A stretch of DNA of 64,000 nt from Gemmatimonadota bacterium (GCA_039588295.1 JBDHAB010000014.1:1-64000); one strand, 5' to 3'. Positions 46,140 to 63,673 are shown, counted from the first letter of the stretch. A program made the numbers and translations. The notes: generated by a model from the letters alone, not told the origin.

Positions 46140-46444
46140 TCCTTCCAACCGGTCTCGGGGTCCCAACGCTCGTCGGGCTTGTAGGGACCCCACCCCATGA
46201 TCTCGTTTCGCTTGTTGCACGCCTCGATGTACGAGGATGCCATGAAGCGATGCAGGACGACGTGCCGCTCCTCGAAACTCAACAGCTTGTGGCCACCAGG
46301 CTTCGTCGAACACAGGGAGAGGTTGTTCGGTTCGTCGTCGGGGTCCCCTTTGAGGTATCCCTCGCAGACGAGCCATTCGACCGGTGATCCGTCGTGTTCC
46401 TCGGCAAACCACCGGTCGAATTCAGAGTAGTAGCGGTCGCTCAT
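46136..46444 (-). CDS. Hypothetical protein
   Basis: Overlaps RNase Z stop. Confidence 0.5.
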   Translation of the reverse strand: MSDRYYSEFDRWFAEEHDGSPVEWLVCEGYLKGDPDDEPNNLSLCSTKPGGHKLLSFEERHVVLHRFMASSYIEACNKRNEIMGWGPYKPDERWDPETGWKD

Positions 46445-47289
46445 ACTCGATCCCCTCCATCGAAGAAATGGATTCGATCAAGCATCGCCGCAGGAAACCG
46501 CTTCTTGGCGATCTCCTCGATCTCGGCCCGCTTGTACCGCATGGAGCGGTGACACAACACGAGAGCTTCGCCTTCGAACTTCTCGCAGTGCTCCACCATC
46601 TCAGCGATGTGGGTGTGGCCGAAGTTCCGACACCCTTCGACGTTGTTGAAACCCTCGTCCCAGACGGTGACCTCGTGAACGAGGATCTTGGCCTTGCGGG
46701 CGAGCTCCTGATTGAGCAGGAACTCGATCTGCGTGTCACCGGGAACAGCGAGGATCGGAGCCGTCTTGGCGTCCGTGATCTCGACTCCATTCTTGCGGAG
46801 ACGGCCGAGCTCTTGGCCTTCGACCCCGACGAACTCCGGCTTGATCTTGCGAGTGGTGCGCTCGATGACGTACCCGACCGAGGGTGCACGGTGGATGGTT
46901 TCGAGAACCTGGGCCGTGTACTCCTTGTCGATCTTGATGGAGTCCCCAGGCTTGACGCCCACGACCTCCAATGTGGAGTCAGGATTTCGGTCACCGAACA
47001 AGGTGCCCAACGTGTTGAGCACAGTCTGGACCATCTCCAGGATCTGCTCTGGCACGTAAACGGTCAGAGGAGTCTTTGCACTCCTGGTGCTTCTCTTCCC
47101 CACGATGTGGGGAAGCGCCATGAAGTGGTCGGGGTGACTGTGCGTGATGAAGAAACGATCAGCAGTCACGCCCGGAAGGACGCAGCCGGCATCGAACACC
47201 GAACGCACTTCGGGGCAGTAGACCGAAGTCTGCACGCCTCCTTGCGCAAACCCCTGTAGGGTCACGCCTGCTACGGTGAATTTCTCCAT
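46441..47289 (-). CDS. rnz: Ribonuclease Z (tRNase Z)-like MBL-fold hydrolase
   Basis: THSHPDH, H..PSVGY, GDT, HEVT, H.S.RY motifs and flexible arm. Confidence 0.8.
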   Translation of the reverse strand: MEKFTVAGVTLQGFAQGGVQTSVYCPEVRSVFDAGCVLPGVTADRFFITHSHPDHFMALPHIVGKRSTRSAKTPLTVYVPEQILEMVQTVLNTLGTLFGDRNPDSTLEVVGVKPGDSIKIDKEYTAQVLETIHRAPSVGYVIERTTRKIKPEFVGVEGQELGRLRKNGVEITDAKTAPILAVPGDTQIEFLLNQELARKAKILVHEVTVWDEGFNNVEGCRNFGHTHIAEMVEHCEKFEGEALVLCHRSMRYKRAEIEEIAKKRFPAAMLDRIHFFDGGDRV

Positions 47290-47328: not shown

Positions 47329-47425
47329 TGGTGCCCAGGGACTGGATTCGAACCAACGACGCACGGTGGTTTAGGACCGCCGCTCTACCACGAAGACCCG
47401 AAAGTCCTCTCTGAGCTACCTGGGC
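47329..47425 (-). tRNA. Atypical tRNA with D-loop hairpin insertion; anticodon ambiguous (8-nt loop, or CUA in an alternative register)
   Basis: GCCCAGG/CCTGGGC acceptor, TTCGAAT T-loop, ACCA end. Confidence 0.6.
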
Positions 47426-49105: not shown

Positions 49106-49231
49106 TCAGGTTGAGAAAATACGAGACCAGCCTGTCACGTCGCCCATCGGCGGCTGTTCTCGGGATTGTGATTTGCTACGAAAGGGGTTCCCCGGGCGCT
49201 CCTGTGAGCGCCGCGCGGGGAGGGAAAAGTT

Positions 49232-49382
49232 GATCAACGCCGAGTGAATAACCTTGAGTTGCGTTTTCACGCCAGATTTACATGTCTGGTGGCTTTACCA
49301 ATTTGCCTATCTGCCCTTAGTGGTGGGCAGAGTTGGACTCGAACCAACAATTGCTTGTGAGATTGTTCTGTTGGCGTTGATC
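49232..49382 (-). ncRNA. Y-RNA-like ncRNA A with circularly permuted tRNA domain
   Basis: Terminal stem GATCAACGCC/GGCGTTGATC enclosing T-arm, loop-closed acceptor stem, D-arm, anticodon-like arm; followed by AACTTTTC. Confidence 0.7.
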
Positions 49383-49390
49383 GAAAAGTT

Positions 49391-49522
49391 ACGAAGCGAC
49401 CGAGTTGAAGAGCTTGTTTGGTTGCAAAGCTGGAATCGAACCAGCGACCTACTGTGTCATTGACAGTTGCTCTAACCGAATGAGCTACTTGCTTGTGAGC
49501 CCTGCTGTGGTGGTTGCTTCGT
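49391..49522 (-). ncRNA. Y-RNA-like ncRNA B: tRNA body enclosed by outer stem
   Basis: ACGAAGCAACC/GGTCGCTTCGT stem, CACAAGC, cloverleaf with non-canonical loop CAATGAC. Confidence 0.7.
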
Positions 49523-49653
49523 GGCGCCGGATCCAGGAGTCGAACCTGGCAGTTGCTTGTAGACATTCACCCGTGAGCTCCCCGGAGGGAGCGAGTGGCG
49601 GTGTCGGATCTAGCCGATCTGAAAAATCGGTGACCCCCACGGGTCAATCCGGC
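49522..49653 (-). ncRNA. tRNA-like ncRNA C with about 60-nt structured variable-arm insert
   Basis: GCCGGAT/ATCCGGC-GCCA acceptor, T-arm, insert ending ACAAGC. Confidence 0.65.
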
Positions 49654-49730
49654 AAGTGGGGTGTTCGCTTGAGGGAGTTCCCTCTTCTCCCCCGAAGGGA
49701 AAGGGCAGCGAAACGGTGCCCTGAAAAAGT

Positions 49731-49866
49731 TGCGAAGTGACCGAGGGGAGAGGCTGTTTTGGTGCAAGGAGCAGGATTTGAACCCGCGACCTTCTGGTTA
49801 TCGACCAGACGCTCAACCGACTGAGCTATCTTTGCTTGTGAGCCTAACTGGAGTGGTCACTTCGTA
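49731..49866 (-). ncRNA. Y-RNA-like ncRNA D, paralog of B
   Basis: TACGAAGTGACC/GGTCACTTCGCA stem, CACAAGC, tRNA body with loop TCGATAA. Confidence 0.7.
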
Positions 49867-49867
49867 G

Positions 49868-50003
49868 TGGAGGACCCTGGATTCGAACCAAGAGTTGTTT
49901 AGCTTGTGGACATTCGCCGAGAGCTCCCGTGAAGGAGCGAGTGGTGGTGTCGGTTTCTACCGATTTACCGTCGGGTTGACCCTCCATTAGGGCCGTGTCC
50001 TCC
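49868..50003 (-). ncRNA. tRNA-like ncRNA E, paralog of C
   Basis: GGAGGAC/GTCCTCC acceptor; insert conserved with C. Confidence 0.65.
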
Positions 50004-50118
50004 ATGTTGTTCAGGGTAGTTCCGAGTACGTGGTCTGGGGGGCTTCAAGGTCCCGACCGCTACTGGGTCGGGGTTGTGCTTGTTAGACCTGCGTGTATGG
50101 AACAGCCGTGAGTTCGGG

Positions 50119-50147
50119 ATACTGCGCGCAGTCATACACGCTGTCAA
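50119..50147 (-). promoter_or_regulatory. Candidate promoter for ncRNA array
   Basis: TTGACA-N4-GTATGAC-N6-CAGTAT; similar element at 62284-62313. Confidence 0.4.
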
Positions 50148-50156
50148 GACCCTTTC

Positions 50157-50729
50157 TCAGATTTTCTCAACTCCGGCCGGCGAAATCGAGTAGCCGGTCT
50201 TGCGGCCGGCCTTGATGAACCGCTGCGCCGCGTAGGCGATGTAGGTCGCGGTGAGCTGGATGAACGGCAGGAACTCCCCGTCCTCGCAGGTCGGAGCTCC
50301 AGCGTCGCCCACGTCGTCGATGACGAAGTCCTCGTCCCAAATGGCCCGCCCAAAGCCCCCATCGGCCGCAAGAGCCCCGTGGAGGCACGGGACCCCGTGC
50401 TCCCGAGCGAACTTCTGAACGATCCTACGGGCCTCTCCGTTGTCCAGGCAGTCGATGAGTAGATCCGCCCCGCCGAGAAGCTGATTCTCGTTGTCGGCCG
50501 TCAGCTTGTTGCTCACGACCTCGATCTTACGGCCATAGCAGAACTGCATGGCCGCCTTGAGAGCCTCAGTCTTCTTCTTGCCCACCCCATTCTTGAAATG
50601 GAACTGAGAAGCGACGTTCTTCATCTCCACCCGGTCGAAGTCGATGACCTTGATGGTCACCTCCTCGTTCCGGAGGGTCTGCACCAGATGGGAACCCAGT
50701 GCGCCGACGCCGATGATCGTGATTTTCAT
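50157..50729 (-). CDS. ThiF/E1-like adenylyltransferase
   Basis: GVGALGS, DFDRVEMKN..SQ, GKKK, DCLDN; candidate catalytic Cys in APTCE. Confidence 0.9.
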   Translation of the reverse strand: MKITIIGVGALGSHLVQTLRNEEVTIKVIDFDRVEMKNVASQFHFKNGVGKKKTEALKAAMQFCYGRKIEVVSNKLTADNENQLLGGADLLIDCLDNGEARRIVQKFAREHGVPCLHGALAADGGFGRAIWDEDFVIDDVGDAGAPTCEDGEFLPFIQLTATYIAYAAQRFIKAGRKTGYSISPAGVEKI

Positions 50730-50743
50730 GATGAGGTCTCCTT

Positions 50744-51103
50744 TTACTTGTCGCCCTTTTTCTGCTTCAGGATCTCGTCGGCCACCATCCCCAGGAATTC
50801 GTCCTTGCGTTGCTCTCGACGAACCTCACCCCTCCGAAGGGTCTCTCGCAAGAAATCCACGGTGGACTCGCGAGCCTGACTGACCGCCTGTTGGAGACGA
50901 TCCGTATTCTTGATGGCATCCAGGACCGAAGTGGACGGCCCCTTGGCAGTGAACGTGAACTTGTCCCCGTCCTTCACCAAACGGGAACTCCCTCCCGCGG
51001 ATTGGTGGAGCTTCCGCAGAGCTCGGAACCCCTCCATCGTTTTCGACCACATCGACTCCGGAATTTGGAGGGTGACGGTGTGTTCGATTATGTCGTTGCT
51101 CAT
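50744..51103 (-). CDS. Hypothetical protein in Ub-like operon
   Basis: 119 aa ORF between Ubl and E1. Confidence 0.6.
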   Translation of the reverse strand: MSNDIIEHTVTLQIPESMWSKTMEGFRALRKLHQSAGGSSRLVKDGDKFTFTAKGPSTSVLDAIKNTDRLQQAVSQARESTVDFLRETLRRGEVRREQRKDEFLGMVADEILKQKKGDK

Positions 51104-51139
51104 CGGGATCTTGAACCGGGTTTGTTACCTCTATTCCCG

Positions 51140-51403
51140 TTAGCCCCCGAACGGAGTCTTCGGACGAACCTGAATCAGGTTGTAGTCCCGATCGGCGTTC
51201 GCCGAAAAACGGTCCACCACGAAATCGGCGAAATCCGGATCCGCGTCGGCCGGAATGCCCGGGATCGACCCATTGGAAACGGCCTCCGAAACCCAGGTCT
51301 TGATGTCGCCATCGACGGCATCGAAGAACACAGGATCCGGGAGATCCCCGTTCTCTCCCTTGTAGGTGATGTTGAGACGTGCTTGCGTGTTATCCATGTC
51401 CAT
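51140..51403 (-). CDS. Ubiquitin-like (beta-grasp) protein
   Basis: 87 aa, ends RPKTPFGG-stop; lies between JAB and E1. Confidence 0.75.
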   Translation of the reverse strand: MDMDNTQARLNITYKGENGDLPDPVFFDAVDGDIKTWVSEAVSNGSIPGIPADADPDFADFVVDRFSANADRDYNLIQVRPKTPFGG

Positions 51404-51788
51404 GACGATTCTCCTTTGAGTAGTCGCGGAGCTGTGCAGCCCAGTCGGGCTCGTCCGCGAGAAAATGGTTGTAGTCGTGCTTCTTGGGTCCTTCGTAGTT
51501 CAAGCCGATCACACGATCGGAACTCGTGATCCACCAGGTCAGGCGTCGCCCGAGCCCGAGCTCTACGGCGGCGAAGGTGGTGATGTCGGTCCAGGAAGGG
51601 CCGGGCAGACCCGACCCCGGGTGACTGTGTGCGAACCCCAGGAATGCTTCCCTTCGGTGCTCCCACAGAACGTCCCACAGATCCCGACTGTCGGGGAGAC
51701 TGCCTCCCGTTCGGCCGTTTGGCAAATGCCAATGGACGACTCCTGCACCCGTAATGACTGCGCCTGCTTCGATCATCGCTTCCTCCAA
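51390..51788 (-). CDS. JAB/MPN (Mov34) metallopeptidase
   Basis: N-terminal E, then HSHP......PS..D JAMM motif. Confidence 0.85.
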   Translation of the reverse strand: MEEAMIEAGAVITGAGVVHWHLPNGRTGGSLPDSRDLWDVLWEHRREAFLGFAHSHPGSGLPGPSWTDITTFAAVELGLGRRLTWWITSSDRVIGLNYEGPKKHDYNHFLADEPDWAAQLRDYSKENRHGHG

Positions 51789-51855
51789 GGAACATGCGTG
51801 AACGCCAAAATGAGCACGCAGATCAGCATGAACACGAGCACTACGGGTGAAAAAT

Positions 51856-52449
51856 TCATCGTTTCCTCTTCTTGATAACTCGTGGAATCTCGTCGAGAGT
51901 CGCCAGAACTTCCTCGTTCTGACGTTTCTGCCATCCCTGGAGCCTTACCGAGGTCTTCAGGTAGTAGGGATGCTTGAGCCAGTCAGCGTACTGAATGTTG
52001 CCTCGCACCTTGTTGCACTTGCGGCAAGCCGACACGAGGTTGGCTTCGGTGGACGGCCCTCCGTCCTCCCAGAGCACGAGGTGGTCCACGGTGAGCGGGA
52101 CCTCCTTGTTGTTGCAGTAACGGCAGGCGTACCCATCACGCCGATAGACGTTCCAGGAGACACCCTGCTCGATGTTGCGTTGGCACTTGCGGGCGACGGA
52201 CTTGTACAGCTTCCCGTCCTCGGCCTTCTCCAGCACTTCGGTCTCGACGAGGTCGGACTGACGGATGAGTTTTTGCCATTCCTCGGTCGTCGGGGTGAGG
52301 ACACGGATGTCCCCTTCATGCTCTCCGAATTCGGGGAACACGACGACGAGGGTCTGATCGTTGCCAGCCCACACCCCACCCACCAGGAGAATCTCCTGGC
52401 CAACGGTCTTGATATCGAGGTCTTTGAATTCCATCAGACATGCCTCCAT
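51856..52449 (-). CDS. HNH endonuclease with N-terminal extension
   Basis: RDGYACRYC..LTVDH..GG..NLVSACRKCN. Confidence 0.9.
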   Translation of the reverse strand: MEACLMEFKDLDIKTVGQEILLVGGVWAGNDQTLVVVFPEFGEHEGDIRVLTPTTEEWQKLIRQSDLVETEVLEKAEDGKLYKSVARKCQRNIEQGVSWNVYRRDGYACRYCNNKEVPLTVDHLVLWEDGGPSTEANLVSACRKCNKVRGNIQYADWLKHPYYLKTSVRLQGWQKRQNEEVLATLDEIPRVIKKRKR

Positions 52450-53366
52450 ACGACGAGCTTGTGCTCGCGGATCGCTTGGCGAATAACTGCGGGCAGAGAT
52501 TCCAGAGTGAAGTAGGTGTCGCCCTTCTCATCGGTGCCGTGATCTGTAAGACAAACACCGGCATCGATGATTTGGAGGTTCGTGTCGCACACGCACTCCA
52601 GGCGCTGCCCATCGACGCGGTACTTCACGGTCCACTCATTCTTGCGACCACTCTTACGGTGGTCCAGATACTGCGCACCGCCGACCGTGAGAGCCGCCTT
52701 GGCAGCCTCCTGGAAATCCTCCTTGGCCAGTTCACGCCGACCAGCACCATCCCCGAGCTTCTCCAGGAGCTCCGCACGACGAGCCACCTTGGCGAGACGG
52801 GCCTCCTCCTCGGCACGACGACGGATGAGCTCCTGACGACGAAGCTCTGCCTGCTGACGCTGGTAGACCTCCATGCGGAAGGCTGCATCGAGCGCGGGCA
52901 CCACACTGCGGATACCGAACGTGCTGATCTGGTTGTCGAGAAAAGCGTTCATGACTTCCTCTTCGGGACCGAGGGGAAAATCCTGCTCACAGAAAATGAG
53001 AGGCCCCTCGGGGTAAATGCGGCCAGCTCGCACACGCGAGAACCGGTCGAGGTCTTCGGGAAGGAGATAGACCTTCTCCGAGTAGTTGATGATCTTGCCC
53101 GGGTCGGGGTCGATCCGGGTGTCGTCGGGGACCAGACGGTCCCCGACCAGGTAGCCCTTGACCGAGCTCTTGAGAAGTTCAGGAGCCGGGTCAGCGGGCT
53201 TCGGGTCCTCGGCCTTGTTGCCTTCGATCTGGAAGGCGTACCAACCAAAATCCCGAGGCCGAGTCCCGAGCTTGAAAGTTCGGGACTCGGAGTGGAGAGA
53301 CCCACCACCCGTCCAAGGAAGAGTAGTGGTCTCCCCCTCGGCCGTGAGTAGATCTCTCCAACCCAT
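52434..53366 (-). CDS. Hypothetical protein, candidate E2-like
   Basis: C-terminal IIDAGVCL resembles the E2 GxICL active site; operon context. Confidence 0.55.
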   Translation of the reverse strand: MGWRDLLTAEGETTTLPWTGGGSLHSESRTFKLGTRPRDFGWYAFQIEGNKAEDPKPADPAPELLKSSVKGYLVGDRLVPDDTRIDPDPGKIINYSEKVYLLPEDLDRFSRVRAGRIYPEGPLIFCEQDFPLGPEEEVMNAFLDNQISTFGIRSVVPALDAAFRMEVYQRQQAELRRQELIRRRAEEEARLAKVARRAELLEKLGDGAGRRELAKEDFQEAAKAALTVGGAQYLDHRKSGRKNEWTVKYRVDGQRLECVCDTNLQIIDAGVCLTDHGTDEKGDTYFTLESLPAVIRQAIREHKLVVWRHV

Positions 53367-53375
53367 GGGGTCACC

Positions 53376-55268
53376 TCATGCCCATGCGGGCTTCTGGAGA
53401 AGCTCCGTTTGAAGGATTTGGTCCACGAGCGTCACACGAGGGCGCGCGCGACCAGCCACCGCTTCCCCAACCGGGGTTGCAGCGATCAGAGCCCGAATCG
53501 TCCGAGTGATCGCGTAGGGATCCTCGAAGGTACGGTCATCGAGCATGAGGCACGGGATACCGAGCCGGTTGGCCGTCTCTCGCACCGCGGTGCTGTTGTC
53601 CGCGCCATAGTGACGCGCACGCCAACCCGCGGCTCCCCCGAACGCAACCGTCTTGAGGAACCCGAAAGCGACCGGGCGCAGGCCCGAAGCCTCGACGGCC
53701 GTGTGGAAGGGACGTGCCTCCTCATCACCAATGAAGATGATCAGAGAGTCCTCGTCATCCGCGGGCTTGTACTTCTGGAGCACACGGATCCCGGCACCGT
53801 AGTCAGTACCACCGCCAGCGCCGATGCCACGGAAAGCCGCCTCCACACCCTTCGTCGAAGCGTGCTTGATGGTGACCTCCCGACCGTTCGTGTTGAACAC
53901 GGCGACCTTCACCTGGTCGAGCGGGAACGACTGGAGGAACTTGGCGATCAGAGGCTTTGCAGCATCCAGAGCACCCTGCATCGACCCCGAGATATCCACG
54001 AGGAACTTGATCGACAAGCCACGGATGGTCTCCTCGACCACCTTCTGAGCCACCTTGTCGGCACCCTCCTCCATCGTCTCCTGGAGCTCCTTGGACCGAA
54101 CGTTGCGGGCGATGTTAGCCGCACGCATGTCGTCCGCCTTGGCGAGAGCCGCAGCGTGGCGCTCCTTGATTTCCTGGATCTTGAACAGGCCCAGGTCCTC
54201 CAGGGTCGGAGTCATGATGATGATGTCCTTGTCCGAAAGGGACCCGGCCTCGATGGCCGCAACCATCACTGCACGAGTGACTCCCACCTTCGGAGGAAGG
54301 AGACCCACGATCCGCTTCCAGTTCGGCTTGGTCTTCTCGATGAGCTGGCAGATAGCCGCCTCGTTGAGATCGTCCCACGACTCGGCAGCCTTGACCGCCT
54401 TACCGATCGCCATGCCACGCCGGCCGTCGTCGGCCTGCTTCTGCTTCCAGCGCAGAGCCTCGAAGAACTTGTCCGAGGTCGGCTTGTAGCCGATACGCCG
54501 AGCCATGGTCATGACCGTGGTACGGAACCCGGCCTTGACGAGACCCTCCAGCATCTTGGGGTTCTCCTCACGGAACCGAAGCCACTTCTCGATGGCCTTG
54601 GGCCATCGACCGAGGAACGGACGCTTGGCCGACTTGCCGAAGCCGAGCTCGCGGTTGATCTCCGCGATCTCGGGCAGCATGAGCACGTCGTAGATCCGAA
54701 GCAGGAGCTTCGGGTTCAGATCCTTGCCCTTCTCCTGGAGAAGAAGCATGGCCTCACCGACGTTCCGGTAGTCGTCATCGTCGAACAGGTGCTCACCGCC
54801 GTCCATGACGGGGTCCCCCTTCCGAGACTGAACCAGAAGGAACGCAGCGAGCACGACCTTGAGGTCACGGTGCTCCTGACGGAAGGCGAACGAAGCCCAC
54901 TTCGCAGCGAACTCGTTGTCCATCTTCCAGACCTCAGCGACCTGCTTGTAGAACCACACCGCGACCTCGGGGAACAGACCGCTCTTGCGGTACAGCCCCA
55001 CCTCGTTACGGCCGTTCCGAACGGTGTTGTCGCCGTTCATCGTGCCGATCTCGGTACGAACGTTCTTCTTCCCCGCCTTGCTGAGACGGAACACCTTCTT
55101 GACGCCGTCCGCCTCCTTGTGCGTGACGGGATCCCACCGCACGCCAATAGTGGCACGCGCGTCGGGAACCACAACGCCAGGGCGGTTGTGAACCATGTGA
55201 TCTGAGTACGCCAGGAGAGACTGGATGATGGTCTCAGCGGGCCCGAGGTTTTCCTTGTTGTTCTCCAT
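53376..55268 (-). CDS. VWA-domain protein, divergent TROVE/Ro60-like
   Basis: Helical N-region with FAAKWASFA..RDLKVVLAA; C-terminal MIDAS DISGSM, GGTD, GDEE. Confidence 0.7.
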   Translation of the reverse strand: MENNKENLGPAETIIQSLLAYSDHMVHNRPGVVVPDARATIGVRWDPVTHKEADGVKKVFRLSKAGKKNVRTEIGTMNGDNTVRNGRNEVGLYRKSGLFPEVAVWFYKQVAEVWKMDNEFAAKWASFAFRQEHRDLKVVLAAFLLVQSRKGDPVMDGGEHLFDDDDYRNVGEAMLLLQEKGKDLNPKLLLRIYDVLMLPEIAEINRELGFGKSAKRPFLGRWPKAIEKWLRFREENPKMLEGLVKAGFRTTVMTMARRIGYKPTSDKFFEALRWKQKQADDGRRGMAIGKAVKAAESWDDLNEAAICQLIEKTKPNWKRIVGLLPPKVGVTRAVMVAAIEAGSLSDKDIIIMTPTLEDLGLFKIQEIKERHAAALAKADDMRAANIARNVRSKELQETMEEGADKVAQKVVEETIRGLSIKFLVDISGSMQGALDAAKPLIAKFLQSFPLDQVKVAVFNTNGREVTIKHASTKGVEAAFRGIGAGGGTDYGAGIRVLQKYKPADDEDSLIIFIGDEEARPFHTAVEASGLRPVAFGFLKTVAFGGAAGWRARHYGADNSTAVRETANRLGIPCLMLDDRTFEDPYAITRTIRALIAATPVGEAVAGRARPRVTLVDQILQTELLQKPAWA

Positions 55269-55411
55269 GGTGTCTCTTCCTCTCTAGTTTCGTGAAAAGT
55301 CGGGGCTGGCCCTTGTACCCCTGAGTTACGTGAAAATATGGGCCTTGCACGAAAGAGCCAAGGAACCTCAACTTTCCGGCCTTTTTGACCGGGCGCCGTT
55401 GATCCTTAGCT

Positions 55412-55488
55412 TGGTTGCGACGGTGGGAATCGAACCCACGACCTCTCCCTTATGAGGGGAATGCTCTGCCGGACTGAGCTACGTCGCA
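55412..55488 (-). tRNA. tRNA-Met/Ile2(CAT)
   Basis: Cloverleaf, loop CTCATAA, ACCA. Confidence 0.85.
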
Positions 55489-55545
55489 AAAATGCCCGTT
55501 GCTGCACTGCGCTCGACTGGTACGGGCGGCCCGTCGAACTGAAAA

Positions 55546-55623
55546 TGGTAGCGGGTCTCGGATTTGAACCGAGGTCTCGGGATTATGAGCCCCGCGGGGA
55601 CAACCGGACTCCCCCAACCCGCA
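55546..55623 (-). tRNA. tRNA-Met(CAT), initiator-like
   Basis: 1-72 mismatch, G-rich anticodon stem. Confidence 0.8.
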
Positions 55624-55776
55624 AAATTTAGTGAACCTGTGACAGCGTGAGGTTCTTGCGCCCACGGATGCGGCGAAGTGCTCGACTAGGGCTCTGCTTT
55701 TTCCCGAGTCCTAGTTGAGCTCGGACGAGCTGTTCGAGACGGAGGAACTCGTCCTCCGTCAGCTCGTCCTCCGTCG

Positions 55777-55812
55777 TTAGTAGATCTTGAAAACTTCGTT
55801 CGTCATCCCCAT
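55777..55812 (-). CDS. Possible leader peptide MGMTNEVFKIY
   Basis: GAGGA RBS; followed by alternative hairpins, upstream of the CAT tRNAs. Confidence 0.35.
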   Translation of the reverse strand: MGMTNEVFKIY

Positions 55813-55832
55813 CGTGTCGTCCTCGACTTTCT

Positions 55833-55910
55833 TGGTGGACGTAGGTGGATTTGAACCACCGACCTTCCGCTTATCAGGCGGCTGCACCGACCAGGCTGTG
55901 CTACACGTCC
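55833..55910 (-). tRNA. tRNA-Ile(GAT)
   Basis: Loop CTGATAA, ACCA. Confidence 0.9.
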
Positions 55911-55914
55911 TCGG

Positions 55915-55988
55915 TCGGCCTGGAAGGAGTTGAACCTTCGACCTCGCACTTATCAGGCGCGCGCTCTAACCAACTGAGCTACAGACCG
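55915..55988 (-). tRNA. tRNA-Ile(GAT), no encoded CCA
   Basis: Loop CTGATAA. Confidence 0.9.
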
Positions 55989-56031
55989 AGTAGATAATCG
56001 GTCCAATGTCACTCTCGTCTTCGTTTTCCAT
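55966..56031 (-). CDS. Putative Ile-sensing leader peptide MENEDESDIGPIIYSVCSSVG
   Basis: AAGGAG RBS; ATT..ATT ATC just before tRNA-Ile. Confidence 0.6.
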   Translation of the reverse strand: MENEDESDIGPIIYSVCSSVG

Positions 56032-56062
56032 CTCGGTCTGCTCCTTTCTTGGTTGATGTTCT

Positions 56063-56137
56063 TGGTAGCCTCGGACGGGATTGAACCGACGACCTTCACC
56101 GTGTCGAGGTGCTGCTCTGCCACTGAGCTACGAGGCT
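56063..56137 (-). tRNA. tRNA-Val(GAC)
   Basis: Loop TCGACAC, ACCA. Confidence 0.85.
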
Positions 56138-56142
56138 GTGTT

Positions 56143-56216
56143 TGGTACCGAGTGAAGGACTCGAACCTTCGCTTCCATCGTGTGAAAATGGCACTCTACC
56201 TCTGAGTTAACCCGGC
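56143..56216 (-). tRNA. tRNA-Val(CAC)
   Basis: Loop TTCACAC, ACCA. Confidence 0.85.
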
Positions 56217-56882
56217 ATAGTTTTTGAGTTGGTCCATCCATCCTTCGATGCGAGCTCGGAAAAGTGTGTCGTGAACCGCGACCTCCAAACACCCGTAGGG
56301 ATGCCCTTTCCGTTTTCCTTTGTTGGTTTTGTTCAAATTCTTCGTGGCCTTGATCTTGGAAGACGCCACTCCAGACACCCGGCTCCAGTACCGTTTAGCT
56401 TTGCTACCGTCCAGCGACGGGTGCAGACGAACCCGCAGTCTAATTTTGTCTTCGGGGACCTCACACTCCTCCCGTAGAAACTGGAGCACGAATCGAATCA
56501 TGTCCGGGTCCGTGTTGCTGATTGAAAACGAGTTCCTTTCCTTTTTACCTTCACCCCAGTAGAGCGCAGCCATCACTCCCCGGAGGGTGCGACTGGAAAG
56601 GTCAACGGGAATTTCCCTTCGACCTCGTACCCGAGCCTCTTCTCGTTTCTTGGCCCAGATTTGCTTAGGGGAGTTGGGGTGGGATGCTGCGGCGATGCGT
56701 CCTTTCAGACGCCCTTGTTCCTCCTTGTCTCGTAGTTGTTCGACCTGTTGCTTGGTAAGGGGGATGTCTCGGGTCCAACGACTGATTGAACTTTTGGCGC
56801 ATCCCGTGTGATTGGCGATCTCGGTGAGGGACTGTCCCTGACGACGCAGGTCTCTTGCTTCTTCTCGTTGATCAGGCTTCAC
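56196..56882 (-). CDS. HTH plus LAGLIDADG-like domain protein (putative homing endonuclease)
   Basis: N-terminal HTH (SLTEIA..GCAKSSISRW); ALYWGEG..F.ISNTD. Confidence 0.7.
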   Translation of the reverse strand: MKPDQREEARDLRRQGQSLTEIANHTGCAKSSISRWTRDIPLTKQQVEQLRDKEEQGRLKGRIAAASHPNSPKQIWAKKREEARVRGRREIPVDLSSRTLRGVMAALYWGEGKKERNSFSISNTDPDMIRFVLQFLREECEVPEDKIRLRVRLHPSLDGSKAKRYWSRVSGVASSKIKATKNLNKTNKGKRKGHPYGCLEVAVHDTLFRARIEGWMDQLKNYAGLTQR

Positions 56883-56945
56883 CGTTTCAGTATGGCAGAA
56901 ATGGAACCGACGGCCAAGGTGTCCTGTGCGGACCAGTGTAAAAAG

Positions 56946-57021
56946 CGGGGCGTACGGGATTTGAACCCGTGACCTCCTACGTGACAGGCAGGCGTCCTAA
57001 GCCAGACTAGACCAACACCCC
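56946..57021 (-). tRNA. tRNA-Asp(GTC), no encoded CCA
   Basis: Loop CTGTCAC. Confidence 0.9.
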
Positions 57022-57152
57022 ATGTTGGCGGAGCAGACGAGAATCGAACTCGCAACCTTCGGACAGACAATCCGTTGCGCTACCAATTGCGCCACTGCTC
57101 CGTACATATCGTCGGTATCGTCCGCATCATCGCTTTCGCTGTTGGTGTTCAT
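56997..57152 (-). CDS. Putative Asp-sensing leader peptide MNTNSESDDADDTDDMY..., reading through tRNA-Asp
   Basis: AAGGAG RBS; 6 Asp in 8 codons just before tRNA-Asp. Confidence 0.65.
   Translation of the reverse strand: MNTNSESDDADDTDDMYGAVAQLVAQRIVCPKVASSILVCSANMGCWSSLA
57026..57101 (-). tRNA. tRNA-Asp(GTC), divergent
   Basis: Loop TTGTCTG, GCCA. Confidence 0.8.
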
Positions 57153-57394
57153 CGTGCTGCTCCTTTCTTGGGGTGAGTGGGTGTCTGGAAAGTTCGGCTG
57201 TTTGATCCCACAGGCCGTCCGGTCGCCTGCTGTATCGCCCCTCGGTGCGGTGCGCTGTCGTGCACCTCGCTTCATCGAGGCGCGTTAGGATGGGATGGAA
57301 AAGTTGAGGCTTTTGTGTCTACCGGTCAGCCTCGGTGGCCGGCCATCACGGATCCTTGATCAGGGGACAACCTGGGACAGGATTGGAAAAGTTA

Positions 57395-57546
57395 GGGATG
57401 CAGGTGAGTGTGCAAGGTGGGTGTGCAGTCATTTGACCACTCCGGCATAAATGGAGCCGGAGCCTGGATTCGAACCAGGAGTCTTCTGTGAATGAAACAG
57501 ATGTCTTTACCTTTTGCTTGTGACCTTAAACGGGGACCTGCGTCCC
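57395..57546 (-). ncRNA. Y-RNA-like ncRNA F with permuted tRNA domain
   Basis: GGGACGCAGGT/ACCTGCATCCC stem, TCACAAGCAA, T-arm then CTCCGGC-loop-GCCGGAG then mini D-arm; AACTTTTCC. Confidence 0.65.
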
Positions 57547-63580: not shown

Positions 63581-63673
63581 GGGCGAGTTAAGCGTAGCCT
63601 GGCCGAACGCACCGGACTTTTAATCCGGAGGACGAAAGTCCCACCGGGGGTTCGAATCCCTCCTCGCTCTCCA
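63581..63673 (+). tRNA. tRNA with TTT anticodon and long variable arm
   Basis: Loop CTTTTAA, GGAC-GAAA-GTCC arm, TCCA. Confidence 0.75.

Follow-up and report, generated by a model that had tools for sequence, protein, structure and literature searches.

Six tRNA-derived RNAs sharing one module lie beside a divergent Ro60-like gene and a ubiquitin-like cassette, with relatives in large phages and myxobacteria

We identified a family of structured RNAs encoded beside a Ro60-like gene in a 64,000-nt contig filed under a Gemmatimonadota bacterium (GCA_039588295.1, JBDHAB010000014.1:1-64000; this whole stretch is called the window below). The window carries six such elements, A to F, all on the minus strand, and they are tRNA-derived RNAs built on one common module. 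Module-bearing elements were found on the gene's strand near Ro60-like homologs in most of the phage, metagenome and bacterial loci that we examined. Because many large phages, like cultured myxobacteria, have such RNAs next to the same Ro60-like gene, the RNAs are likely to be partners of its product, and our comparative analysis makes it on balance probable that the module is the docking site of the Ro60-like protein and that the elements are Y-RNA-like. Y RNAs and their protein Ro60 have been described in animals, in some bacteria and in a few phages.

A sequence-only reading of the window had proposed that the six elements share the heptamer YACAAGC and an (A/C)CTC motif. All six do share the heptamer, and the second motif proved to be part of an invariant CUCG, whose G closes a stem. 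The window holds 25 copies of YACAAGC where 9.5 (standard deviation 3.0) are expected, a count that none of 100 shuffles reached, and nine copies of AACTTTT where 2.9 are expected, a count reached by one shuffle in 100. The same reading had A, B, D and F closed by terminal stems of differing sequence, each followed by AACTTTT, and this was borne out with stems of 10-11 positions. Pairing is complete in A (10/10, 49373-82 with 49232-41) and D (10/10) and reaches 10/11 in both B and F, with a different sequence in each of the four. A fifth AACTTTT (57299-57305, minus strand) follows a short hairpin, GAGGCU...AGCCUC, just downstream of F (57299-57340); the 89 nt around it fold no better than shuffled sequence (z -0.2). 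Sites that a scanner flagged as terminator-like are arms of the elements and were rejected as terminators.

From the outside inward, the module consists of a stem (S), an internal loop, a helix (P2) and a second loop. Stem S is free in sequence, and its innermost pair is almost always C-G, the G being the last letter of the invariant CUCG. The internal loop comprises about 8-10 nt, starting with CA-N-C on the 5' strand and facing N-C-A-C-U-C on the 3' strand. P2 has 4-6 bp, and the second loop sets a single-stranded YACA(A/C)GC(AA) opposite an A-rich strand. Where three ways of grafting a tRNA onto this module had been proposed, we found four. Type V (C and E) has a full cloverleaf as its body; the acceptor stem has 7 bp, the end is NCCA or NCUA, and the module serves as the variable arm, a small loop closing S. 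In type T (B and D), P2 and S are formed by the 5' leader and the 3' trailer of a whole tRNA, and ACAA|GC lies across the tRNA 5' end. Type P (A) is type V circularly permuted, S being open at the variable arm and the acceptor stem sealed by a loop starting with ACCA. Element F represents the fourth topology, in which the acceptor stem is also sealed and the module enters at the D-loop, where the tRNA is permuted.

The individual elements follow these plans closely. The cloverleaf of E has a 7-bp acceptor stem, a D-like hairpin, an anticodon-like arm, a T arm and a 3' ACUA, and its long variable arm is the module, running through P2, CUCG, the hairpin-closed S, a linker and CCACAAGC. Element C ends in GCCA, and its last base is the first base of the terminal stem of B; E+D and C+B form tandem V+T units. 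Element D holds a tRNA-Ile body with anticodon GAU (49760-49835), with P2 and a 10-bp S (49855-64 with 49733-42) forming a clamp at the acceptor end; CACAA|GC straddles the tRNA 5' end, and a C followed by AACUUUUU comes after the stem. The tRNA-like body of B (49420-49494, anticodon AUG) has a weak acceptor stem and is clamped by P2 and an S of 11 positions, 10 of them paired, followed by AACUUUU. Element A is ordered as one strand of S (b), a linker, P2, CACAAGCAA, the T arm, the acceptor stem sealed by an 8-nt loop starting with ACCA, the D arm, the anticodon-like arm, P2', CACUCG and the other strand of S (a), then AACUUUU. In F, S (10/11 pairs) is combined with P2 (UAAGG/CCUUG), UCACAAGCAA, ACUC and a tRNA part permuted at the D-loop, which comprises a sealed 7-bp acceptor stem, a T arm and an anticodon-like arm; a U and AACUUUU follow.

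Upstream of E we noted a possible seventh element that lacks a tRNA body and contains the stems GUUCC/GGAAC and GGUCU/AGACC together with AUACACGC, AACAAGC and ACGUACUCG. A clearer form of the module without a tRNA is present in locus L036, at about 1405-1497. A possible promoter of the cluster stands further upstream, and TTGACA is also found upstream of the clusters in L008, L011, L012, L024, L027 and L036. A sigma-70 consensus scanner called no promoter at 50147, so the putative promoter rests on our reading by eye.

Comparative analysis supports these folds. For type V we aligned 32 sequences from 13 sources and derived a consensus with RNAalifold, which returned the cloverleaf together with P2 and S and showed compensatory changes in 30 of the 31 pairs. 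Paired cells amounted to 85.8%, compared with 55.5% in shuffles, and the covariation score was 0.715 as against 0.209; none of 500 shuffles reached it, and sliding the 3' partners gave at most 0.213. In the type T alignment (21 sequences), compensatory changes occurred in nine of ten S-stem pairs, and GC..ACA.G and CUCG were invariant. In the type P alignment (8 sequences), 18 of 33 pairs carried compensatory changes, and S and P2 were recovered along with the T arm and the sealed acceptor stem. Covariation backs the proposed fold, and the elements are a real, structured and conserved RNA family. Nearly identical elements from Corallococcus (L121, L125, L126, L128, L130, L132, L134, L136 and L138) combine a hypervariable anticodon-like loop and upper stem, for example UUCGUAAUU, CUCCAGUUU and CUUGGGUUU, with an almost invariant remainder.

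The sequence-only reading implied that RNAs and gene should co-occur in other genomes, and we found that they do, across phages and bacteria. Searches used a covariance model of type V, termed R1, to which ordinary tRNAs score at most about 39 bits. It matched 38 places at 54-117 bits in 13 of 29 sources, 32 of the 38 being its own seed sequences; many of the 16 sources without a match are short contigs. In whole records R1 matched only in the neighbourhood of the gene. Across the 4.5-Mb genome that includes the window, the only two matches were C and E. Elements A-E lie 3.4 kb downstream of the Ro60-like gene and F lies 2.1 kb upstream. A complete 221-kb phage has a single R1 match, 12 kb downstream of the gene; in a 200-kb phage the matches are confined to its cluster; and 'Virus Rctr197k' has no type V match and carries a type P variant 8.6 kb downstream of the gene. 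R1 matches of 30-39 bits and about 150 nt also appeared in tRNA arrays (L027:5411-5561, L018:3599-3757, L016:1730-1882, L012:3666-3820, L014:376-536 and others); these may be neighbouring tRNA pairs or another class of oversized tRNA-like RNA.

Starting from the RNA rather than the gene, a three-motif pattern scan of viral contigs returned 13 loci, seven of which hold R1-positive elements; the other six had no R1 match and were taken as chance. The gene was within 10 kb in three of the seven and 21 kb away on the same 288-kb contig in a fourth, and the remaining three are fragments rated 6-31% complete, in which the elements alternate with GIY-YIG endonuclease genes. In the phage fragments L045, L049 and L054, type V-like elements (50-71 bits) alternate with genes for SegE-like GIY-YIG homing endonucleases.

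A scan of bacterial and metagenome-assembled genomes, one genome per species, gave 138 relatives, from which 80 loci were kept. In 31 of these, mostly Myxococcota genome bins, the protein is 51-61% identical; in the other 49, at 36-42% identity, there are complete chromosomes of Corallococcus and another Myxococcaceae strain, Hyalangium, as well as bins assigned to Verrucomicrobiota, Terriglobales and Leptonemataceae. The model R1 matched 44 times in 30 loci, always on the strand of the gene, 30 of the matches lying 201-1453 nt upstream and 14 lying 375-6133 nt downstream. A script for open-stem elements (X motif, T-loop, CUC and a stem of at least nine pairs) found them in 44 of the 80 loci and never on the opposite strand, one (L106) looking false, and the union of both searches covers 55 loci. 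Among the 25 remaining, 17 have an X motif beside a T-loop close to the gene; in nine Corallococcus records and three others of this group, the elements just upstream of the gene could be aligned as type P. In L126, read by eye, the element ends about 110 nt before the tblastn match. The association between RNA and gene survives down to 36% protein identity, across host phyla and from phage to chromosome.

One rival explanation is that the elements are selfish tRNA-derived repeats, spread by homing endonucleases and without a function of their own. An HNH gene within the window cassette and the alternation of GIY-YIG genes with elements in the three phage fragments would fit such an origin. 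The structure, however, is kept through compensatory changes, strand and position relative to the gene are strict across phyla and down to the lowest protein identity, and the HNH gene is present in just 10 of the 80 loci. We regard this explanation as very improbable.

The protein encoded beside the RNAs comprises an N-terminal beta insert (residues ~31-94), a helical ring (~100-415) and a vWA domain (418-600). Within the vWA domain, D425, S427 and S429 of a DxSxS motif, which we take to be of the metal ion-dependent adhesion site type, are invariant in 50 sequences. The family is large, with 1442 proteins at E <=0.001 among 8000 candidates scored and 280 representatives at 50% clustering. 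Pfam, PHROGs and NCBIfam recognise the vWA domain only (Pfam VWA_2). Searches of PDB sequences with phmmer and a profile likewise returned vWA, together with a weak RO60 match (E 6.7e-4, in the vWA part) and phiLo TROVE at E 0.18, and TROVE clusters in the Atlas, at 0.85-0.86, fell under the 0.9 line and served as a lead only. An AlphaFold2 model based on 50 sequences is confident (predicted local distance difference test 86.9, predicted TM-score 0.82). Against the PDB, the top nine Foldseek matches are all Ro60/TROVE structures, aligned along almost the entire chain (513-576 alignment columns, E 2.5e-8 to 2.1e-5), the best being the Ro60 of Thermus phage phiLo (9kop, E 2.5e-8). VIA-align gave Z 12.2-13.1 over 416-437 residues for the human, Xenopus, Deinococcus and phiLo proteins (human Ro60 13.1 over 431 residues, 9kop 12.9 over 417, D. 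radiodurans Rsr 12.2 over 416). All other high rows covered the vWA domain alone, so that full-length matches are Ro60 structures only. From the predicted model we conclude that the product of 53376-55268 is a divergent Ro60-fold protein with a TROVE-type ring and a vWA domain. The sequence-only reading had named it a divergent TROVE-VWA protein; the Ro60 fold is found in a confident model, and a TROVE profile match is not.

Ro60 genes with adjacent tRNA-like Y RNAs have been described in bacteria and phages (PMC4201824), and phage phiLo Ro60 binds two Y-like RNAs encoded upstream of it, Yrl1 and Yrl2 (PDB 9KOP, 9L5Y; PMC12135203); here and below, statements on these systems refer to excerpts of the two papers. 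In the bacterial class YrlA, which accompanies the bacterial Ro60 Rsr in S. Typhimurium, M. smegmatis and mycobacteriophages, the 5' strand of the Ro60-binding stem carries a conserved GNCGAAN0-1G (PMC4201824). The present RNAs resemble YrlA in that a terminal stem and an internal loop carry a tRNA-like domain and in that their genes adjoin a gene for a Ro60-fold protein. In element A the T arm, the sealed acceptor stem and the D arm also follow one another as in YrlA, and the ACCA at the start of its sealed loop is reminiscent of M. smegmatis YrlA, an RNase P substrate to which CCA is added (PMC4201824). The YrlA-like domain, with T arm, loop-closed acceptor stem and D arm, is present in type P generally and, in permuted order, in F; C/E and B/D differ from it in that their acceptor stems are open. 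Further differences from YrlA are that YACA(A/C)GC, CUCG and the P2 helix are invariant in place of GNCGAAN0-1G, that the tRNA bodies keep an anticodon-like arm, that four graft topologies occur, whole cloverleaves and whole tRNAs included, and that a phage may hold up to five or more tandem copies. The protein too differs from Rsr, lying outside the TROVE profile and in a cassette with ubiquitin-like, E1 and JAB genes rather than in an RtcB operon.

With gathering and E-value thresholds, Rfam 15 returned only tRNA and a weak YrlA match, and no family for these RNAs. The gathering score for tRNA (RF00005), 29 bits, was reached only by the bodies in D (64.9) and B (44.3); A (23.5) and F (22.9) scored below it, and C and E were not called. 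We also considered whether C and E might be transfer-messenger RNAs and rejected the idea: ARAGORN found none, and a tag-like frame noticed by eye in C is not kept in E. Full-text literature searches returned no account of these RNAs, nor of a Ro60-like protein accompanied by a ubiquitin-like cassette.

Three considerations favour the Y-RNA-like reading. Within the cassette, pairing with adjacent tRNA-like RNAs is a known trait, in bacteria and phages, of the Ro60-fold proteins; in the bacterial loci the RNA lies directly in front of the Ro60-like gene; and the module's conserved single strands, flanked by helices of free sequence, look like a protein-binding site. Several observations weigh against it. 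The best match to the YrlA model (RF02553), element A, scores 23.1 bits against a gathering score of 69, and the second 15.3; that alignment takes in the T arm, the sealed acceptor stem and the D arm of A and leaves out the Ro60-binding stem. On a Corallococcus element the same model gave no match at E up to 10. The module bears no resemblance to the known Ro60 site, and GNCGAAN0-1G or CGAA is not conserved, occurring only as ACGAAG in B and D; among the 21 sequences of type T and the 8 of type P, stem S varies freely. For the protein, the TROVE profile (PF05731) found no match, nor was it among the 25 of 40 families listed for 50 homologs at E up to 1, and hhalign comparison with two single TROVE proteins yielded E 0.02 (probability 2%) and a match confined to the vWA domain. 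The structural match is moderate (TM-scores 0.34-0.51, root-mean-square deviation >5 Å), partly because of the extra N-terminal beta unit at residues 31-94. Eight of the 80 bacterial loci show no element by R1, the open-stem script or the X-motif/T-loop check, the RNAs lie 12 and 21 kb from the gene in two phage genomes, and many loci are interrelated, so the counts are not independent trials. Finally, the RNAs co-occur with a whole cassette of five genes, any of whose other products (p310, E1, JAB or the ubiquitin-like protein) could be the partner. Because the RNAs travel with all five, co-occurrence cannot name the binding partner, and the Ro60-like protein is what we infer. The earlier suggestion of a new Y-RNA-like class is supported in part, the family being conserved and structured, built of tRNA grafts on one module, absent from Rfam and far below the YrlA threshold.

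The cassette itself is conserved. After p310, a protein of no known family (no match in Pfam, PHROGs, NCBIfam, PDB sequences or the Atlas), the genes follow in the order HNH, JAB, an 87-residue likely ubiquitin-like protein (Ubl), a 119-residue open reading frame and ThiF/E1, which places them between the Ro60-like gene and the RNA cluster. The 119-residue frame is kept in none of the 80 loci. In loci L062-L092 (n=31) we found p310 in 27, Ubl in 24, E1 in 23 and JAB in 14, and in L093-L141 (n=49) p310 in 35, JAB in 39, E1 in 36 and Ubl in 29. The conserved unit is one or more RNAs with the Ro60-like protein, p310, JAB, Ubl and E1; no E2 was recognised in the cassette.

This arrangement raises the possibility, which we consider unlikely, that the RNAs belong to the Ubl/E1 part of the cassette and that the module is recognised by p310, E1 or Ubl. 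The pairs TtuB/TtuC and Urm1/Uba4 thiolate tRNA, and a sulfur-carrier relay here might thiolate the tRNA-like RNAs; in another version the RNAs would be a substrate or cofactor of tagging. The genes for Ubl with its Gly-Gly end, JAB and ThiF/E1 do separate the Ro60-like gene from the RNA cluster, which in the window begins right after the E1 gene; p310, Ubl, E1 and JAB are conserved in both protein groups, and NCBIfam gives, among many ThiF-type models, a weak match of E1 to the tRNA-modifying TcdA. However, none of the cassette proteins was recognised as a tRNA thiolase (PP-loop ATPase), the bacterial RNA is directly upstream of the Ro60-like gene whereas Ubl/E1 can be 9 kb further away, as in Corallococcus, and Ro60-fold proteins are the sole cassette members with documented binding of tRNA-like RNAs.

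The tRNA character of the bodies suggests another explanation, namely that the elements are devices of tRNA supply or decoys, the module delaying or regulating processing by RNase P and RNase Z or shielding tRNA mimics that act as a sink for host anticodon nucleases; no protein would then be dedicated to them. The elements sit inside a phage tRNA array, and D holds a high-scoring tRNA-Ile (64.9 bits). In type T the RNase P cut is predicted to fall within YACAA|GC, NCCA is the end of some type V elements, and the phage has an RNase Z-like gene of its own. The anticodon-like loops vary freely even in near-identical Corallococcus copies. Against this, the module is kept where no tRNA can be released (the sealed types P and F and the tRNA-less form in L036), the anticodons of many bodies are unsuited to their scaffold, a single copy is kept beside the gene in bacterial chromosomes outside phage tRNA arrays, and the invariant single strands of the module suggest specific recognition. 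This explanation appears to us quite improbable.

If the elements are Y-RNA-like partners of the Ro60-like protein, their life cycle might run as follows. The cluster would be transcribed from the putative promoter at ~50147 as a single precursor and cut into units by the tRNA-processing enzymes RNase P and RNase Z, possibly including the phage's own RNase Z-like enzyme (46441-47289), which could be a trimmer of elements ending in NCUA rather than NCCA; in the open types, S and the U-run would set the 3' ends. The Ro60-like ring would bind the module, and the tRNA-like half would present a tRNA shape to a second factor, as YrlA may do for Rsr. Since the cassette encodes Ubl, E1 and JAB, the RNA-protein particle probably works together with this tagging machinery. 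A bolder version, which is speculative and rather doubtful, is an RNA-dependent Ubl tagging machine in which the ring holds the tRNA-shaped RNA by its module and E1, Ubl, JAB and p310 act on or through the RNA. Adenylated Ubl might then be loaded on the tRNA-like end, like an amino acid on a tRNA, and the interchangeable anticodon-like loops might select the target to be tagged.

Other known systems share features with this locus. Like phiLo Ro60, the best structural match of the model, the window protein is a phage-encoded Ro60-fold protein with candidate partner RNA genes close by. The two proteins share 14-16% sequence identity, the phiLo RNAs differ in being plain stem-bulge-stem Y RNAs with a CGAA motif, and no Ubl cassette is reported for phiLo in the excerpt (PMC12135203). 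D. radiodurans Yrn1 is similarly a Y RNA with a tRNA-like part, anticodon-like arm included, whose orientation differs from that in YrlA (PMC4201824); as excerpted, Yrn1 shows that tRNA grafts on Y RNAs arose more than once. Unlike the present RNAs, both strands of its Ro60-binding helix resemble metazoan Y RNAs, and it lacks the YACA(A/C)GC/CUCG module.

Among tRNAs proper, class II species carry long variable arms and circularly permuted tRNA genes exist. Type V resembles the former, but its arm is ~60-75 nt long and has a conserved internal loop; types P and F resemble the latter, but their acceptor stems are sealed, so these forms are not precursors of ordinary tRNAs. On the protein side, Bil and the type II CBASS (cyclic oligonucleotide-based antiphage signalling system) genes Cap2/Cap3 are bacterial ubiquitin-like conjugation operons and TtuB/TtuC is a sulfur-carrier pair; as in these, a Ubl ending in Gly-Gly, E1/ThiF and a JAB peptidase are encoded in one operon. 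To our knowledge, none of them is associated with a Ro60-fold protein or dedicated tRNA-like RNAs.

On the Y-RNA-like reading, the elements would be a second, large family of the Ro60/Y-RNA type, one without an Rfam match. The presence of one module in four tRNA topologies is a natural experiment in which tRNA shape and module are separable. The coupling of a divergent Ro60 clade to Ubl, E1 and JAB points to an unexplored link between RNA surveillance and protein tagging, and the tagging-machine version, if true, would be the first link between a Y-RNA particle and ubiquitin-like conjugation, in cultured myxobacteria and their large phages. Since the locus is present in cultured, genetically tractable Corallococcus, the idea is open to direct testing at the bench.

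Table 1. Coordinates of the RNA elements, their motifs and the neighbouring genes in the window.
Feature	Position	Strand	Basis or remark
Element A, type P	49232..49382	-	sequence read; alignment of 8 such elements
Element B, type T	49391..49522	-	ARAGORN; Rfam tRNA 44.3 bits, model positions 3-68
Element C, type V	49522..49653	-	R1 98.2 bits; full cloverleaf
Element D, type T	49733..49864	-	ARAGORN; Rfam tRNA 64.9 bits; stem by script; S covaries
Element E, type V	49865..50003	-	R1 80.6 bits; alignment and consensus fold
Element F	57395..57546	-	stem script; minimum free energy (MFE) fold has these helices, z -2.6; Rfam tRNA partial match 22.9 bits
YACAAGC sites	A 49353-59; B 49491-97; C 49555-61; D 49834-40; E 49902-08; F 57516-22	-	
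AACTTTT after terminal stems	A 49225-31; B 49384-90; D 49725-31; F 57387-93		
Possible seventh, tRNA-less element	50004-50110	-	MFE -33.1 kcal/mol, z -3.4; between putative promoter and E
Possible promoter of RNA cluster	50113..50147	-	perfect TTGACA 50147-50142, 17-nt spacer, weak CAGTAT; read by eye
Ro60-like protein, 630 aa	53376..55268	-	model, Foldseek, VIA-align
p310, no known family	52434..53366	-	directly downstream of Ro60-like gene; tblastn 21/30 and 62/80 loci
HNH gene	51856-52449	-	kept in 10/80 loci
JAB/JAMM-type peptidase (HSHPGSGLPGPSWTD)	51390..51788	-	Prok-JAB E 9.3e-5, 22.7 bits, under cut-off 25; 53/80 loci
87-aa protein ending Gly-Gly, likely Ubl	51140..51403	-	open reading frame (ORF) translation; 53/80 loci; no Pfam match
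ThiF/MoeB/E1-type adenylyltransferase, 190 aa	50157..50729	-	Pfam ThiF E 3.8e-25; NCBIfam; 59/80 loci; last gene before RNA cluster
RNase Z-like metallo-beta-lactamase, phage-encoded	46441-47289	-	NCBIfam RNase_Z E 3.2e-24, under equivalog cut-off
Large ORF, 2579 aa	6875-14614	-	without Pfam family
Large ORF, 2626 aa	15281-23161	-	without Pfam family

The window is contig C14 of a 160-contig, 4.5-Mb genome bin and looks like a large phage. It contains 19 tRNA genes by ARAGORN and 21 matches by Rfam, together with the two large ORFs and genes for an R2K ATP-grasp protein, RNase H, HNH and the RNase Z-like enzyme. GenBank phage records contain a single relative, 'Virus Rctr197k' (58% protein identity), and blastn of the RNA cluster against GenBank phages gave matches of tRNA size only. 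A search of 150 further genomes of the phylum, including three from the same genus, found no Ro60-like protein and no type V RNA (R1 match), so the contig is probably a phage binned together with the bacterium. Among sequencing runs, no RNA run was listed, and six DNA runs share at most 0.10 of words. Elsewhere in the window, two tRNA calls are over-long, one of 94 nt (33.2 bits, 47332-47425, minus strand) and a tRNA-Lys(UUU) of 93 nt (40.7 bits, 63581-63673, plus strand), and both may be tRNAs with insertions.

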